Positions 1 to 7,681 of a stretch of 7,698 nt of DNA are shown piece by piece. The position numbers and the translations under genes were made by a program. A model generated the notes under the pieces. The model saw nothing but the letters and a program-made list of their open reading frames with translations, had not been told where the DNA came from and made no database searches. The first letter of the stretch is position 1; every line of letters begins with the position of its first letter. This DNA is from a virus. Its lineage: Duplodnaviria; Heunggongvirae; Uroviricota; Caudoviricetes. Location of the stretch: the IMG/VR virus record IMGVR_UViG_2734482594_000023; one strand, written 5' to 3'.

Positions 1-459
1 TTATTCAGTCGGCAGTGCTACGCGCCAGGGGAGCAGTTCGCCGACCCGGTTTATCGGCCAGTCGGCTATGACGTCAAGGACATAGCGGAGGTAGCTTTCT
101 GGCTCCACTCCGTTCAGTTTGCACGTCCCGATCAGGCTGTACAGCAGCGCTCCCCGCTCTCCTCCATGATCCGAACCGAAGAACAGGTAGTTTTTGCGGC
201 CCAGACTGACCATCCGCAACGCATTTTCAGCGATGTTATTGTCCGCCTCAGCCCAGCCATCATCTGCATAGTACGTCAGCGCCGGCCACTGGTTCAGGGC
301 ATATGCGAACGCTTTCGCCAGTTCTGAGTGTCGCGACAGGGTTTTCATCTTTTCACGCAGCCAGCTTTCCAGGGATTTCAGCAGCGGTTTCGTTTTCAAC
401 TGACGTTCGGCAAGGCGCTGTTTCAGCAGGAAGATGTCGTCAGAAGAGATGTCGTTCAT
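1..459 (-). CDS. IS66-family transposase, C-terminal fragment (truncated remnant)
   Basis: The 152-aa ORF carries the conserved C-terminal block of IS66-family transposases (...DNNIAENALRMVSLGRKNYLFFGSDHGGERGALLYSLIGTCKLNGVEPESYLRYVLDVIADWP...ELLPW). The upstream in-frame sequence hits a stop at 520-522, so the N-terminal two-thirds of the transposase and the other IS66 genes are absent on this side. Confidence 0.8.
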   Translation of the reverse strand: MNDISSDDIFLLKQRLAERQLKTKPLLKSLESWLREKMKTLSRHSELAKAFAYALNQWPALTYYADDGWAEADNNIAENALRMVSLGRKNYLFFGSDHGGERGALLYSLIGTCKLNGVEPESYLRYVLDVIADWPINRVGELLPWRVALPTE

Positions 460-677: not shown

Positions 678-1415
678 TCATTCACTCTCTTTCAAACCAG
701 TTTTAACTGTTTGTGGTTTTGGGTAAGGCTGGACTTTGAATAGCTTTGTGTTAAGGCGTTTTCTGGCTCTCTTGTCCAGAAACCGGATGTAACGAAACTG
801 ACGGAATTTATGAACACTGGCTCTGTCGATATTAGCCCGCAGATGTTCACCTCGCTGTCCTCCTCGTTTGATTGCATTCTTGCAAATCTCGTGATACCAC
901 TCGCCATCAAGTTCATAGAATGTTGTTTCATGACTGCCTACATAATCAAAATTGCTTGCCTGGTACACGACACCAAGACAGCCACAACGCTCATCTGCAA
1001 ACGACTGAACCCACTGCACCTGCGGATAAAGTTGTCTGATTAGTTTGAGCGCGTAACTGATTGCCCTTGATTCGGAGTTTCTCGGCATACAGTCATGCAG
1101 CCATAACCGGTTAAGCTCCATATATTCGCGGTTCTGCGTGCCAGTTACGACGCGTGCACCATTGTTTGGATTAAGGGCATAACCCCATTGCATTACGCCA
1201 ACCAGCTCCCGTTCTGAAAATATGCCCAGATGAAGGTAGGAATTATTTACGAAACGATGGCTGTAATGTTTATTGACGACGACCAGCCGGGCCAGCCAGC
1301 AACTTATTGTCTCAACCCGTAACTCACGGGAGCCATAACCGACGATATTGTCGTTATAGTGAATAAGTTCAGGCGTGCTGATGATACGGGATGTAACTTG
1401 CTTTCTGTTCCCCAC
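678..1415 (-). CDS. mom: Mom-family DNA modification protein (adenine carbamoylmethylation, acyltransferase-like); start codon uncertain
   Basis: The ORF lies immediately downstream of, and overlapping, a Com-type zinc-finger gene, as in phage Mu. The proposed GTG start at 1415 gives 245 aa, close to Mu Mom (about 231 aa as I recall), has AAGGAAA 7-9 nt upstream, and sits in the 3' arm of a hairpin. The ORF track extends to a GTG at 1610, which I regard as over-extended; an ATG at 1577 is an alternative. Confidence 0.75.
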
Positions 1416-1569
1416 GACAGGATTTCCTTGTGTATGTGGGGTGCTCTGTGGCGCTCTGAGATGTGATTTGATTGAGGGTTTTACAGCGCGGACATTTAAC
1501 TTCCAGATAACTGAAGCTGGCTCGTGCCAGTAGCTTGTTACAATGTCGGCACCGTATGTTTCGATACAT
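1369..1569 (-). CDS. com: Com-family zinc-finger translational activator of mom
   Basis: The 66-aa product [33 protein letters not shown]... has a CxxC...CxxC zinc-finger layout like Mu Com. AGGAGG lies 10 nt upstream of the ATG at 1569, and the 3' end overlaps the mom start region by about 46 nt. The track's TTG start at 1614 is rejected. Confidence 0.8.
1410..1441 (-). promoter_or_regulatory. mRNA hairpin sequestering the mom GTG start, with the Shine-Dalgarno in the loop (putative Com-responsive translational operator)
   Basis: On the minus strand, CCCCAC (1441-1436) pairs with GTGGGG (1415-1410). The 20-nt loop contains AAGGAAA, and the GTG at 1415-1413 lies in the 3' arm. Confidence 0.45.
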
Positions 1570-1610
1570 GGCCGCATAACCTCCTGCTTTGTTGTTGATA
1601 TCTTTATCAC

Positions 1611-1702
1611 TCAATCGATCGACAAAAACGATCGATTTGATTTATTTAATTGATACAACAAATAACACGAAATGTCATTAGCGAAAATTTATGAGTTTGA
1701 TC
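1611..1702. promoter_or_regulatory. AT-rich divergent control region upstream of com/mom with clustered Dam (GATC) sites and an inverted repeat
   Basis: GATC occurs at 1617-1620, 1630-1633 and 1699-1702. The imperfect inverted repeat TCAATCGATCG-ACAAAAA-CGATCGATTTGA spans 1611-1640. In Mu, mom transcription is controlled by Dam methylation of upstream GATC sites (OxyR binding) and by C-protein activation. Confidence 0.4.
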
Positions 1703-2903: not shown

Positions 2904-4440
2904 TTACGCGTTATTCACTTCCACCACGATACTGTCAATCAGTACCGGGTAAGTCGCATTTTTAGTGATATCGGTCACGCGCAACTTGTCTGCCGTAAAC
3001 GTGCCGACCGGAGACTGCGACAGCATGAATGGTGTCCCGTCCTTACCATCAANNNNNNNNNNNNNNNNNNNNNNNNNNNNNNNNNNNNNNNNNNNNNNNN
3101 NNNNNNNNNNNNNNNNNNNNNNNNNNNNNNNNNNNNNNNNNNNNNNNNNNNNNNNNNNNNNNNNNNNNNNNNNNNNNNNNNNNNNNNNNNNNNNNNNNNN
3201 NNNNNNNNNNNNNNNNNNNNNNNNNNNNNNNNNNNNNNNNNNNNNNNNNNNNNNNNNNNNNNNNNNNNNNNNNNNNNNNNNNNNNNNNNNNNNNNNNNNN
3301 NNNNNNNNNNNNNNNNNNNNNNNNNNNNNNNNNNNNNNNNNNNNNNNNNNNTGAGCCTTGCCACCTCCGGCAGCCCAACCCTGTGGTGTCAACCGTCCTT
3401 CAGACTCAGATGCCCGGTAAGCAAATAGCGTACTCATCGTCGTGGTGTCTGCGGGTGGCGTGGACGGTTTTGATGGTGTATCAGGTGACGGCTTCTCATC
3501 CGGTGGTGTCACGGTCTGCCCACGCATCAGTTCAGCCGTGCGCCCTGCATGGAGCATAATAGCTGAGGCCAGACGGTCTGAAATGACGCCCCTGCGTGCC
3601 CATGAGCTGAAATGGCTGTCACGCTGTGTCGAAACAAAACTGCCCTGGGTTCGGGATGCTGCACCGTAATACCCGACAGCCACAATATCCGGGTCTTCCG
3701 CCGGAGCATTCGTTGGCGTGCNNNNNNNNNNNNNNNNNNNNNNNNNNNNNNNNNNNNNNNNNNNNNNNNNNNNNNNNNNNNNNNNNNNNNNNNNNNNNNN
3801 NNNNNNNNNNNNNNNNNNNNNNNNNNNNNNNNNNNNNNNNNNNNNNNNNNNNNNNNNNNNNNNNNNNNNNNNNNNNNNNNNNNNNNNNNNNNNNNNNNNN
3901 NNNNNNNNNNNNNNNNNNNNNNNNNNNNNNNNNNNNNNNNNNNNNNNNNNNNNNNNNNNNNNNNNNNNNNNNNNNNNNNNNNNNNNNNNNNNNNNNNNNN
4001 NNNNNNNNNNNNNNNNNGCGGTCAAACGAATCCGGTAACGGCAGCCCCTCGCCGTAGGCCATGCCATTTGACTGACCCGCGAGAATGACAACAAAGTAAT
4101 ATTCCGGCTCTGAACTGCTGCCATTCGTGCTACCGGAAGGCCCGGCGTTATCCGGTGCATTCCAGTCGGAGGGCGTGAGCGTTCCGGCCACGTCAGATGT
4201 GATTGGAATGATGCCAGTCACGCCTGAACTGGTGATTTCTGCACTGGGATTACCGGATACCGGCATTACCCATAATGGCTCTTTCGTGCTGAAGCGGATC
4301 ACGCAGTCTGCGAAGGTGATCCCCCCTTTATTACCCGAAGGGCGGAAAGGGCTTTCAATAAATGCCACCGTGCCACCGGCAACCTTGACTGAAAACTCTC
4401 CGGGCATGGCGGAGAGCATTTTCCACTTGGAGTCTGACAT
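2904..4440 (-). CDS. NanS-like sialate O-acetylesterase (SGNH/SASA-type) with an N-terminal extension and a C-terminal Pro/Thr-rich linker plus extra domain; frame ambiguous across masked blocks
   Basis: The N-terminal part (4440->4018) contains YYFVVILAGQSNGMAYGEGLPLPD, the GQSN nucleophile block of SASA/NanS esterases. After the mask, TNAPAEDPD...GYYG...SHFSSWARRGVISDR continues the esterase in a different frame, followed by TPPDEKPSPDTPSKPSTPP and a C-terminal region ending at the TAA at 2904. The span (1537 nt) is not a multiple of 3, so either a frameshift lies in 3722-4017 or the masking is not length-exact. Confidence 0.65.
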
Positions 4441-4516
4441 CGTCTTTTCTGCCTGTTTCTGAATTAAACAGAGTCAGAATAGCGACCGCTGAAAAATATG
4501 TGTTTTGCGGAAATTC

Positions 4517-4544
4517 AAAAAAGCGTCACGGTACTTTTGGTGAC
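4517..4544 (-). terminator. Weak hairpin plus U-run at the invertase stop codon
   Basis: On the minus strand, GTCAC (4544-4540) pairs with GTGAC (4529-4525) across a 10-nt loop, followed by GCTTTTTTG. The stem is short. Confidence 0.25.
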
Positions 4545-5136
4545 GGAGCTGGTGAGGCAGGAAAATAACGATAAAGGNNNNNNNNNNNNNNNNNNNNNNN
4601 NNNNNNNNNNNNNNNNNNNNNNNNNNNNNNNNNNNNNNNNNNNNNNNNNNNNNNNNNNNNNNNNNNNNNNNNNNNNNNNNNNNNNNNNNNNNNNNNNNNN
4701 NNNNNNNNNNNNNNNNNNNNNNNNNNNNNNNNNNNNNNNNNNNNNNNNNNNNNNNNNNNNNNNNNNNNNNNNNNNNNNNNNNNNNNNNNNNNNNNNNNNN
4801 NNNNNNNNNNNNNNNNNNNNNNNNNNNNNNNNNNNNNNNNNNNNNNNNNNNNNNNNNNTTGTCCGTAATGCTGCGGAAGTTAACGCCGCGTTGCCGGAGT
4901 TCTTCTGTTAAAAGGACAAGGTGCTGCATACTGCGTCCAAGGCGATCCAGTTTCCAGACCAGCAGGGTATCCCCTGGCCGGAGTCGCTTTAATGCGCGTT
5001 TAAGTCCGGGACGCTCCCTTGTCTTACCGCTTATTCTGTCTTCGAAAAACAGCTCACATCCTGCACATTCCAGCGCATTTCTTTGTAGCGCCGTATTCTG
5101 GTCATTTGTTGACACCCTGATATACCCAATCAGCAT
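4526..5136 (-). CDS. Site-specific DNA invertase, serine recombinase (Gin/Pin/Cin/Hin family); C-terminal frame differs from the ORF track
   Basis: The N-terminus MLIGYIRVSTNDQNTALQRNALECAGCELFFEDRISGK...LLVWKLDRLGRS is a canonical resolvase/invertase catalytic domain. Left of the mask, the frame reading LYRYFPASPAPSPKVP* (stop at 4528-4526) matches the Hin-type C-terminal helix-turn-helix tail (STLYRYFPAS). The track frame ending at 4474 is rejected. The span is not a multiple of 3 if the masked block is length-exact. Confidence 0.8.
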
Positions 5137-5430
5137 NNNNNNNNNNNNNNNNNNNNNNNNNNNNNNNNNNNNNNNNNNNNNNNNNNNNNNNNNNNNNNNN
5201 NNNNNNNNNNNNNNNNNNNNNNNNNNNNNNNNNNNNNNNNNNNNNNNNNNNNNNNNNNNNNNNNNNNNNNNNNNNNNNNNNNNNNNNNNNNNNNNNNNNN
5301 NNNNNNNNNNNNNNNNNNNNNNNNNNNNNNNNNNNNNNNNNNNNNNNNNNNNNNNNNNNNNNNNNNNNNNNNNNNNNNNNNNNNNNNNNNNNNNNNNNNN
5401 NNNNNNNNNNNNNNNNNNNNNNNNNNNNNN

Positions 5431-5613
5431 TATATCCAGGATATCAGGCTGGGAGCAGAGAACAGGCAGGTAATGTACGGTGGGGCATATTACTCTGCGT
5501 ACGGTAATGTTATGGCAGGCCTGCAGATTGACAGTAAAGTTGATGCTTCAAACGATTTTATAGCATTCAGACCCCTGCAAAAATTAGTCGGAGGTACATG
5601 GATTACGGTATCT
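5431..5613 (+). CDS. Alternative tail-fibre C-terminal tip (S'v-type variable exon), 5' end masked
   Basis: The frame is open from the mask edge to the TAA at 5611-5613: ...GAENRQVMYGGAYYSAYGNVMAGLQIDSKVDASNDFIAFRPLQKLVGGTWITVSQL*. Its tail shares the RPLQ..L..G.W.T motif with the minus-strand fibre tip (...[22 protein letters not shown]). Confidence 0.6.
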
Positions 5614-5673
5614 CAGTTATAAATAGTCAGTAAATAATATATTTTAAAACAGATTTATTTCCAGGAGGATTTT

Positions 5674-6195
5674 ATGGAACTAAAAAATATAACCCGTTAT
5701 TATCCTGAAAATATGCCATATGGTAATAATGTTCAGTATTTCCAGAGTGAAGATGGTAAGGATTTCTACGAATCCCTGCCATTATTCACCAAAAAATATA
5801 AACTTTGCATAACACCTGACAGCGGCGTTATCTGCTCAATATCACAGGACGCCTCGGCGCTGTATCCTGCGGGGTTTTCTGTGGTTGAGGTCGATGAACT
5901 CCCTGAAGGCACGGATATTTCAGGAAACTGGAAGTTTGATAATGGCATAATCTCCCGTATTCCGGTTAACTACGCAAGAAAACTGGAAGCAATGCGCCAG
6001 TCATATCTTAATCAGGCATATGAAAAAATTAATGACTGGAGAACGGAGCTACAACTGGGCACCATCAGCGATGAAGACAGAGCAGCACTTACCCAATGGA
6101 TGGCATACATCAGTCAGGTGAAGAAAATGGAACTACCCGCCATTAAAACAGAAGCTGAATTTAACGCCATTAAATGGCCTGAGCAGCCACAGTAA
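5674..6195 (+). CDS. Tail fibre assembly protein (Tfa / Mu U / P2 G-like chaperone)
   Basis: ATG at 5674 has AGGAGG 5 nt upstream. The 173-aa product sits 60 nt after the alternative fibre tip, and its size, position and C-terminal region (...WMAYISQVKKMELPAIKTEAEFNAIKWPEQP) fit the Tfa family. Confidence 0.75.
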   Translation: MELKNITRYYPENMPYGNNVQYFQSEDGKDFYESLPLFTKKYKLCITPDSGVICSISQDASALYPAGFSVVEVDELPEGTDISGNWKFDNGIISRIPVNYARKLEAMRQSYLNQAYEKINDWRTELQLGTISDEDRAALTQWMAYISQVKKMELPAIKTEAEFNAIKWPEQPQ

Positions 6196-6198
6196 TAA

Positions 6199-6218
6199 AG
6201 AAGGCCGGAAGGCCTTCT
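6199..6218. terminator. Perfect hairpin between convergent tfa and tail-fibre genes (probable terminator for the fibre transcript)
   Basis: AGAAGGCC (6199-6206) pairs with GGCCTTCT (6211-6218) around a GGAA loop. On the minus strand the stem is followed by UUAUUACU. It lies 8 nt beyond the fibre stop and 3 nt beyond the tfa stop. Confidence 0.5.
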
Positions 6219-6226
6219 GAATATCA

Positions 6227-7108
6227 TTATATACTTGCAGCCGTCACCCATGCTCCATTTAACAGATACTGCAACGGCCGGTAATACACGCCGCCGACGT
6301 TATCTGCCGTATTCTTACCGACATCCTGTACTTTAATTCCGGTAAGAACATTGCCGCCCCCCAGATTCAGATCCCAGCTTTCCCATGTTCCGGGCATATG
6401 TGCGGTCACCGACCCCAGTCTTATGGCGGTTACTGTTCCTGATGAGATAGTGATATCCTGCGTCCCGTCAAAGGGAACACCATTAATTGTGTGGGCATTT
6501 GCCAGCCTGTTCGCGGCAACGGCGGTGCCGTCCGATGGCAGGGCATTCGCCGCCCTGTTTACCGTTTCCCGTAAACCGACGTTATCGATAAAAGCCCCTT
6601 TATCCGGAATGTCTGCGCCGTTCTGCTCCCTGCGCAGGTAACGGTTATCACCTTCGCTTTTGCTGTAAACATCCAGATTATTACGGGCGGTTCCCTTATT
6701 CTCCAGGTCGGCGAGATTCTGATCCTTCGCCAGGGCATTAACGTCAGCGGGACCAAGACTGTTTTTTGTGGCAAGCGTCCCCAGACCAAGATAACCACGG
6801 GCCAGACGCTGGGCCTCCGCACCGGCATCAGCAATTTCTTTCAGGTTATTTTTCCGGGAAAAGGCATTCGCAGCGATAATGGCTTTAATGGACAGCGTAA
6901 GCTGGTTTAACTGCGCCTTATCCGGCTGAATACTGGCTTCAGCCAGAATATTCAGCAGTTCGGCCTGGAGAATATTCAGCCAGTCCTGACCAATCCAGCT
7001 GATACCTTTTTGTCCGTCACCTTCGGTAAACCAGGTGGTGGTATTACTCTGCGCCGGTGCCAGCGCAGGCATATTCGCCACGCCGGAATTATTATCAACA
7101 TGAAACAT
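6227..7108 (-). CDS. Tail fibre protein (constant N-terminal part plus variable C-terminal tip in its current orientation)
   Basis: ATG at 7108 has GAGGAGA 8 nt upstream, 15 nt after the stop of the upstream baseplate gene. The 293-aa product has an N-terminus [18 protein letters not shown]...WFTEG...[15 protein letters not shown] that I read as the fibre type found in Mu/P2-like phages (from memory), and the crossover site falls in the codons for FIDNVGLRE. Confidence 0.8.
6566..6591. other. gix/hix-like 26-bp recombination (crossover) site for the serine invertase
   Basis: TTCCCGTAAACC-GA-CGTTATCGATAA compared with Mu gixL TTCCTGTAAACC-GA-GGTTTTGGATAA (as recalled) matches at 22 of 26 positions with the same half-site/2-bp core layout. 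It lies inside the tail-fibre ORF at the constant/variable junction. Confidence 0.6.
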
Positions 7109-7123
7109 TAAATAGTCTCCTCT

Positions 7124-7681
7124 TCATGGCTNNNNNNNNNNNNNNNNNNNNNNNNNNNNNNNNNNNNNNNNNNNNNNNNNNNNNNNNNNNNNNNNNNNNN
7201 NNNNNNNNNNNNNNNNNNNNNNNNNNNNNNNNNNNNNNNNNNNNNNNNNNNNNNNNNNNNNNNNNNNNNNNNNNNNNNNNNNNNNNNNNNNNNNNNNNNN
7301 NNNNNNNNNNNNNNNNNNNNNNNNNNNNNNNNNNNNNNNNNNNNNNNNNNNNNNNNNNNNNNNNNNNNNNNNNNNNNNNNNNNNCGAGGGCTTCATCCGG
7401 TATTTATTTCCGGCATAACGCTGTCGCTCCGTGAGGGTGGCTCCGGCCATATCACACTCGGGAAGCCCGAGATAACGCTCCCAGTCTTCCAGCAGCAGGC
7501 GCGACGTGTCAGGGAAACGCTCGGCAAGCAGCTGTTTACCCGTCCAGGATACACGCGCTGTCGAATGACTGAGGCCCAGACATAATGATGCCAGTACGGA
7601 TGACGGACGCTTGTCCCATGCCAGCCCGTCAGGCAGTAACTGCAACAGGGCGCGCTGATGCGGGGTCAGGGTTACAGCCAT
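7124..7681 (-). CDS. Phage baseplate/tail protein (P2 gpI / Mu gp48-like, DUF2313-type); C-terminal half masked
   Basis: ATG at 7681 has AGGAGA 7 nt upstream. The N-terminus MAVTLTPHQRALLQLLPDGLAWDKRP...LLEDWERYLGLPE resembles the gpI/gp48 family. The gene sits directly upstream of the tail-fibre gene, as in P2 (I-H-G) and Mu (48-S-U). The TGA at 7126-7124 is in frame only if the masked block is length-exact. Confidence 0.65.
   Translation of the reverse strand: MAVTLTPHQRALLQLLPDGLAWDKRPSSVLASLCLGLSHSTARVSWTGKQLLAERFPDTSRLLLEDWERYLGLPECDMAGATLTERQRYAGNKYRMKPSXXXXXXXXXXXXXXXXXXXXXXXXXXXXXXXXXXXXXXXXXXXXXXXXXXXXXXXXXXXXXXXXXXXXXXXXXXXXXXXXXXXXXP

Follow-up and report, generated by a model that had tools for sequence, protein, structure and literature searches.

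The stretch of DNA analysed here is the 7,698-nucleotide (nt) virus record IMGVR_UViG_2734482594_000023, referred to below as the window, and coordinates are those of the window unless another locus is named. To judge from its gene content it holds the right-hand end of a Mu-like prophage, read on the minus strand, and our subject is its tail-fibre gene, the invertible segment that supplies the fibre with its C-terminal tip, and the single tail-fibre assembly (chaperone) gene, tfa, within that segment (Table 1). Textbooks illustrate the switching of host range by DNA inversion with the G segment of phage Mu, in which each of two fibre tips is described as having a matching chaperone. In the window, a baseplate wedge gene of the Mu gp48/YmfQ family stands directly upstream of the fibre gene, and gp48, Mom and Com domains are all present; a complete relative additionally encodes a Mu transposase, a Mor/C activator and Gam, and members of the lineage are inserted in xdhA, bcsA and other genes, as a transposable prophage of the Mu-like (Sp18) type would be.

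Five blocks of N interrupt the window (3053-3351, 3722-4017, 4578-4858, 5137-5430 and 7132-7384). Comparison with identical genomes showed that the blocks exceed the sequence they replace by 13-47 nt; because they misstate its length, open reading frames (ORFs) that run through them are frame-shifted artefacts, and a listed invertase ORF of 220 amino acids (aa) is really one of 190 aa. Six complete Escherichia coli genomes are 100% identical to the window over 5431-7130, and one of them, locus L001, is also identical over the adjoining unmasked 4859-5136. The 247-nt stretch of L001 that corresponds to the block at 5137-5430 contains the second crossover site, on the side of the invertase, together with 79 nt upstream of the invertase gene and codons 1-56 of the second tip, tip B.

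Residues 1-198 of the fibre match the constant part of the Mu fibre S (PDB 5yvq_A, E = 9e-46; 47.5% identity to Mu by tblastn), and the homology reaches the same GL(R/Q)ETVN position at which the Mu G segment starts. Beyond the crossover, the tip currently in use, tip A, is encoded from 6577 to 6230, followed by the stop codon at 6227-6229. The original prediction that the fibre gene ends at 6227 and runs straight into a hairpin is borne out by these boundaries, whereas the tip, put there at 113 aa, comprises 116 codons (6230-6577). Tip A is identical to the tip of a P1-like fibre at 39 of 74 positions and to that of a P2-like fibre at 32 of 68. Tip B is silent in the window; in the flipped genome L002 it is joined to the constant part, giving a fibre of 296 aa that is followed by tfa. 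The two tips have their first ~48 residues in common, are 45% identical over the last 68, and finish in strands of the form ...RP.Q....G.W.T..., which are present also in Mu S and S′. The hairpin between the convergent tip A and tfa genes is terminator-like on the minus (fibre) strand only, the single T-run lying on that strand (RNA fold z = -2.46).

Table 1. Features of the window, with strand and the basis of each assignment
Feature	Position	Strand	Basis and remarks
Baseplate wedge gene, Mu gp48/YmfQ family	7124..7681	-	Pfam Phage_Mu_Gp48, E = 9.4e-14; YmfQ family annotation in identical genomes; partly masked
Tail-fibre gene	7108..6227	-	ORF, 293 aa
Fibre constant N-terminal part, 177 codons, outside the invertible segment	6578..7108	-	Homology to Mu S constant part up to the crossover position
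Fibre-side 26-base-pair (bp) gix-like crossover site	6566-6591		TTCCCGTAAACC GA CGTTATCGATAA; central dinucleotide 6578-6579
Inverted-repeat arm, encoding the shared first ~48 residues of both tips	6438..6586		86 nt (6501-6586, 93%) and 50 nt (6438-6487, 84%)
Tip A cassette, 116 codons and stop, currently fused to the constant part	6227..6577	-	'VQDxGxxxADNxGGVYYRP' type
Hairpin between convergent tip A and tfa, G+C-rich	6199-6218		8-bp stem; 8 nt past the fibre stop
tfa (tail-fibre assembly/chaperone), 173 aa, the only tfa	5674-6195	+	Pfam Caudo_TAP PF02413, E = 4.8e-19, above cut-off
Spacer between tip B stop and tfa start, 51 nt, AT-rich	5623..5673	+	Strong AGGAGG ribosome-binding site; -10-like hexamers TATATT and AATAAT
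Tip B, visible C-terminal part, 63 codons and stop, silent	5431..5622	+	Translation
Masked block	5137-5430		L001 5754-6000, 247 nt: invertase upstream region, second crossover site, start of tip B
Gin-family serine DNA invertase, 190 aa in identical genomes	4526..5136	-	Pfam Resolvase, E = 8e-31; mapped via L001; middle masked, length altered
Large late gene, SASA-esterase/DUF6645 protein	4440..2904	-	Between invertase and com/mom
com and mom	about 1614..678	-	Com and Mom domains by Pfam
IS66-family transposase fragment	1-459	-	Beyond the prophage end

The invertible segment is ~1.3 kilobases (kb) long. Its right edge had been placed at 6579, which coincides with the central dinucleotide of the fibre-side crossover site (6578-6579); the left edge proposed at 5431 is only the edge of a masked block, and the invertase-side site, read from L001, is TTCCTGAAAACC TC GGTTTACGGGAA. 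In L001 (the second site being masked in the window) both sites have a central TC, lie in inverted orientation and share the same inner half-site, while the outer half-sites stay with their own flanks in both L001 and the flipped L002. A repeat search on L001 located the partner of the inverted-repeat arm inside the masked block. The invertase, taken from an identical genome, is 74% identical to Mu Gin over 184 aa.

L002 (NZ_CM167682) carries the same prophage as L001 with the segment flipped, and of the near-identical copies in complete genomes 18 have the window orientation and two the flipped one. For the sublineage of O157:H7 type, both possible junctions were constructed and searched for in complete E. 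coli genomes; the tip A junction was found in 184 and the tip B junction in seven, some flipped matches being 100% identical, although these counts are indicative only, since there is much clonality among the genomes and the tip B query detects a single tip type. The orientation in which tip A is expressed and the chaperone gene is antisense is clearly the commoner state, and flips have occurred repeatedly. Because the invertase is Gin-like, the central TC is shared and near-identical prophages occur in both orientations, we consider the switch to be real and active.

The product of tfa is homologous to the Mu chaperone U (PDB 5yvq_B, E = 4e-16), aligning to residues 24-164 of U. In the window the gene is antisense to the fibre operon, and becomes co-directional with the fibre only after inversion, when a gap of 51 nt separates it from tip B. 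A tfa of its own behind each tip, as in the paired arrangement, is not found: the gene at 5674-6195 (+), behind the silent tip B, is the only one in the window and none is co-directional with the current tip, so that the asymmetry originally proposed for the segment is confirmed, with both orientations represented in genomes. A second chaperone gene hidden in the masked block would have overturned this proposal, but the equivalent 247 nt of L001 hold no chaperone ORF and no ORF longer than 66 aa. We note that this 66-aa ORF (L001 5766-5966, minus strand) reads on the strand opposite to the conserved beginning of the tip cassette and spans the invertase-side crossover site, that it would survive in both orientations because it lies within the inverted repeat, and that several RefSeq genomes list it as a hypothetical protein.

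Of 5,426 complete E. coli genomes, more than 200, those of O157:H7 included, carry a prophage of this lineage, and the same arrangement is found throughout it. In ~40 related loci, from complete E. coli genomes and IMG/VR, exactly one tfa lies between fibre and invertase, and tblastn with two Tfa types detected no second copy in any of them; a lost second tfa, which the original prediction had suggested looking for in related prophages, is thus nowhere to be seen in the loci examined. The order in the E. coli relatives is constant part, tip, hairpin, reversed tfa, reversed tip and invertase, and it is kept even where the fibre constant parts are down to 62% identical, and with both of two Tfa subtypes that are 61% identical to one another. 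The tfa gene is intact in all relatives but one (L089), an assembly with many frameshift calls. In four loci (L004, L006, L039 and L092), a remnant of another tip type, its last ~12 codons, is left between the end of tip B and the tfa spacer; these remnants are scars of the replacement of tip cassettes by recombination.

Comparison with Mu shows that the element has every defining feature of a G segment for which we looked, except paired chaperones. The two have in common the run of gp46, gp47 and gp48 genes, fibre, invertible segment, invertase and com/mom neighbourhood, the same crossover position (GL(R/Q)ETVN), tips homologous to the C-termini of S and S′, and a Tfa homologous to U. They differ in that the 3-kb segment of Mu consists of Sv-U and U′-S′v, each tfa beginning 2 nt past its tip, whereas here the segment is ~1.3 kb with tips of ~117 codons, one tfa and a 51-nt spacer, and an extra gene for a SASA/DUF6645 protein is placed between invertase and com. 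The C segment of P1, with its invertase Cin, and the P1-like phage MH422554 likewise exchange fibre C-termini by means of an invertase, and one P1-like tip is 52% identical (tblastn) to tip A over the last ~74 residues; MH422554, however, has a pair of tfa genes arranged back to back, and each of them abuts on its own fibre tip. The earlier statement that Mu and P1 segments carry a chaperone for each tip therefore holds, with S-U and U′-S′ in Mu, and fibre-tfa and tfa-fibre in the P1-like case. A Mu prophage in FDAARGOS_1059 also has two tfa genes back to back. The prophage in CP066032, for which a Mu-type inversion has been confirmed by long reads (PMC9881135), was considered as a possible member of the lineage and rejected, being a classical two-tfa Mu prophage.

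Among the closest described elements is Sp18 of E. coli O157:H7 Sakai, which belongs to the same lineage; O157:H7 genomes show the same layout, with a tfa region 91% identical to that of the window, although the window copy differs in its tip B (type 1) and in its tfa spacer (type T1). Sp18 has been reported to have an invertible host-specificity region with genes unlike those of Mu, and to be an intact prophage whose DNA is efficiently packaged (PMC2669165). The literature that we found on Sp18 and on Mu-type fibre switches contains no discussion of the single chaperone or of the problem that its orientation poses. A scan of other species returned at least one locus, a Mu-like prophage of Citrobacter braakii (L007/L103 and L102), which has the one-chaperone invertible layout in both orientations and a spacer of 69-101 nt before tfa; it differs in that its Tfa is an unrelated protein of 229 aa of the DUF4376 type, and in that the A-type tip is the one linked to tfa.

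The original prediction offered degeneracy of the segment as one explanation of the missing chaperone. The segment would then be the remnant of one with two chaperones, the tip A orientation would yield defective fibres and non-infectious particles, and only tip B would be productive. Classical relatives do have two tfa genes, so that one has presumably been lost here, and some copies of the segment sit in prophages with frameshift calls. However, the layout is common to divergent sublineages (the fibre constant part down to 62% and Tfa down to 61% identity) and to the Citrobacter lineage, the supposedly dead orientation is the majority state, and the report on Sp18 cited above describes a packaged, intact prophage.

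A further argument comes from derivatives in which the switch has been lost. In these, a single deletion, with the same junction everywhere, has removed most of the invertase gene and most of tip B, leaving a tip A fibre facing a reversed tfa. This locked form occurs in seven complete genomes and eight IMG/VR contigs (loci L003, L019, L023-L028 and L088-L091), at sites in xdhA (strain CI5), next to citF (JE86-ST05), in bcsA (S1-CAM-01-A) and in a lateral-flagellar gene (M3), and its insertions interrupt host genes as those of Mu do. The copy in S1-CAM is a complete 38-kb prophage but for a later insertion of an insertion sequence. JE86-ST05 contains one locked and one invertible copy. A phage locked in the window orientation thus kept spreading, to at least four chromosomal sites, which strongly opposes degeneracy, and we reject that explanation as very improbable. 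That the segment is a functional one with a single chaperone we hold to be nearly certain, and the distribution of the layout strongly supports the view that it is the normal working design of the whole prophage lineage rather than a broken copy.

If the design works, the fibre with tip A must either fold without Tfa or obtain it in spite of the orientation of the gene. Homologues of tip A were found in five phages (P1-like, P2-like, Pectobacterium POP15, Escherichia TH18 and Actinobacillus pPE4), and in all five a tfa on the same strand lies 0-17 nt downstream; that of TH18 was confirmed as Caudo_TAP. The non-invertible pairs among these (of the P2 H-G type, and in POP15, TH18 and pPE4) resemble the present element in combining a homologous tip domain with a Caudo_TAP chaperone, but there is no inversion and tfa follows at 1-17 nt on the same strand. 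In Citrobacter, too, the A-type tip stands directly upstream of tfa. Since homologues of tip A are always linked to a tfa, a chaperone-independent tip A is unlikely, and tip A probably requires Tfa.

The rival explanation, put forward in the original prediction as one of its options, is that tip A folds unaided and that only tip B uses the chaperone; tfa would be silent in the window orientation, and inversion would switch the tip and its Tfa cap together. It would account for the terminator-like hairpin that ends the fibre transcript right after tip A, and for the lack of any detectable promoter or late-promoter motif upstream of tfa (see below). It would also fit the restricted diversity at the position without a tfa: in E. 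coli this position always holds one tip family, that of tip A, while three occupy the tfa-linked position. Against it stand the five unrelated phages in which tfa immediately follows the homologous tip, and the Citrobacter loci, in which the A-type tip is the tfa-linked one and a different tip occupies the position without tfa; moreover, the long conserved spacer before tfa would be left without a role. The locked derivatives also speak against it, because they express tip A only in the antisense arrangement and yet tfa is intact in all of them but one (the assembly with many frameshifts mentioned above), with pairwise ratios of nonsynonymous to synonymous substitution (dN/dS) of 0.10-0.23, while the remnant of tip B has decayed and carries indels. 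The low ratios were considered as proof of selection in the locked lineage and rejected as such, giving weak support only, since the alleles are mosaic. We regard a chaperone-free tip A as disfavoured and rather unlikely. A related proposal, that inversion toggles, along with the receptor-binding tip, the very involvement of Tfa in making the fibre, the tip A state producing 'uncapped' fibres, seems to us somewhat more doubtful still; if true, tip A would be a natural Tfa-independent member of a Tfa-dependent fold, and the toggle a second layer of host-range control.

If tip A does need a chaperone, the Tfa encoded in the segment could serve both tips. In Mu, Tfa on the mature fibre contributes to host recognition. 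The N-terminal domain of Mu Tfa binds the distal part of the fibre, according to a summary of North et al. (2019) given in PMC9608196, and conserved C-terminal helices are stated to drive trimerisation, with Tfa remaining on the virion (PMC9608196, PMC11915804). Among the loci studied here, the N-terminal domain of Tfa is nearly invariant, although these loci have three types of tfa-linked B tip and both Tfa subtypes. Mu U, for its part, is 85% identical to the Tfa of a P2-like phage but pairs with a tip of another type. A generalist Tfa that serves both tips is therefore plausible, because the tips are alike, the N-terminal domain is invariant, and near-identical chaperones occur with different tips.

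The same observation, that near-identical Tfas serve different tip types, would permit a chaperone to be supplied in trans, by the tfa of another prophage resident in the same host, when tip A is in use. E. coli genomes usually contain several tfa genes, and homologous Tfas (55-62% identity) are common in prophages of other types. Infectivity would then hang on the prophage content of the host, however, and neither the lineage-specific spacer nor the fact that locked prophages have kept a tfa of their own would be explained; we consider supply in trans to be highly unlikely.

A Tfa shared by both tips has to be expressed in both orientations, and here the sequence between tip B and tfa is of interest. 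The region upstream of tfa had been described as AT-rich, which is correct for the 51-nt spacer at 5623-5673. The gap between tip B and tfa is 51-121 nt in all single-tfa loci, whereas 46 other loci with homologous tfa genes have 4-17 nt there, and Mu has 2 nt. Five unrelated types of spacer occur, each with a -10-like hexamer 20-40 nt before the start codon, and nucleotide diversity over the proximal 45 nt of the commonest type is 0.028, 4-10 times lower than the 0.12-0.31 of the synonymous sites nearby. These properties make the spacer a candidate for a promoter region that is independent of orientation. A nine-nucleotide sequence common to the T2 spacer type and the region upstream of com was also considered, but is within chance expectation.

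Several observations weigh against the idea that a shared Tfa is expressed from the spacer. A scan of the tfa strand for the sigma-70 consensus gave no promoter at threshold, and the -35 matches found in a looser scan of the spacers are poor. None of the -10-like hexamers stands out by itself from AT-rich sequence (P = 0.18-0.58), and the joint shuffle probability, ~0.004, is post hoc. A late-promoter motif, TGAnnnYCCGCAAA followed after ~22 nt by TAnnnT, was derived from the regions upstream of the lysis, protease and DUF6645 genes of a complete relative (L094), in which it occurs exactly three times (at 11086, 19273 and 34418 of that locus), upstream of the lysozyme, head-protease and DUF6645 genes; in the window it precedes the DUF6645 gene (4455-4520, minus strand). 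It is probably the Mor/C-dependent late promoter of the lineage, but it is absent upstream of tfa, so that a C-dependent late promoter of this form was rejected there and a timing of tfa with the late genes is not accounted for. To these points must be added the single tip family at the tip A position, already mentioned, and the origin of the tfa alleles in the locked lineage, which are mosaic, synonymous divergence (dS) reaching 0.43 next to a junction of 97-100% identity; locked copies could thus have an intact tfa because it was imported from invertible relatives, and not because it was selected in place. The option raised originally, of one chaperone serving both tips from its own promoter, consequently survives in part: a shared chaperone is the best supported of the options, while the promoter was not recovered either as a sigma-70 site or as a late motif.

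The mechanism that we favour combines these elements. A Gin-like serine invertase recombines a gix-like site within the fibre gene with a second such site and so flips ~1.3 kb of DNA, setting one or the other of two homologous cassettes of ~117 codons behind the constant 177 codons of the fibre; this part is well supported. The single Tfa, we propose, would act as a generalist on both tips, folding them and probably also capping them, with a tip-binding N-terminal domain that recognises features common to the two. With tip B in use, tfa and the fibre would be transcribed together; with tip A in use, the state of the window, tfa would be transcribed from a weak or activator-dependent promoter in the spacer. 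The hairpin would halt the fibre transcript before it runs antisense through tfa, and would let transcripts in the sense of tfa continue. We think this complete scheme, a shared Tfa expressed whichever way the segment lies, somewhat more apt to be right than wrong.

The remainder of the window adds some detail on the prophage. The SASA/DUF6645 gene (2904-4440, minus strand) encodes 684 aa, with a SASA carbohydrate acetylesterase domain and DUF6645, has no counterpart in Mu, and may specify a virion-associated or surface-modifying enzyme; two small genes separate it from com/mom. Just upstream of com, at 1615-1650, there is a cluster of GATC sites (tcaatcgatcgacaaaaacgatcgatt), which recalls the Dam-dependent control region of Mu mom but differs from it in position. 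The prophage probably ends near 553, and repeated GTATCAAA motifs at 560-650 may be binding sites for the transposase. The window prophage is inserted at another site than its otherwise identical counterpart in L001, which lies at ybfB/rhsC.

The existence of a prophage lineage with a single chaperone calls into question the textbook picture in which every tip has a chaperone of its own. That two interchangeable tips come with only one chaperone implies that the specificity of Tfa is broader than the paired layout suggests, and that expression of the chaperone is uncoupled from the fibre operon. Across the lineage several tip types have been swapped in, and the locked derivatives show that the switch can be lost without loss of phage function. 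A single Tfa able to serve many tips would, in addition, simplify the engineering of host range in phages or tailocins.

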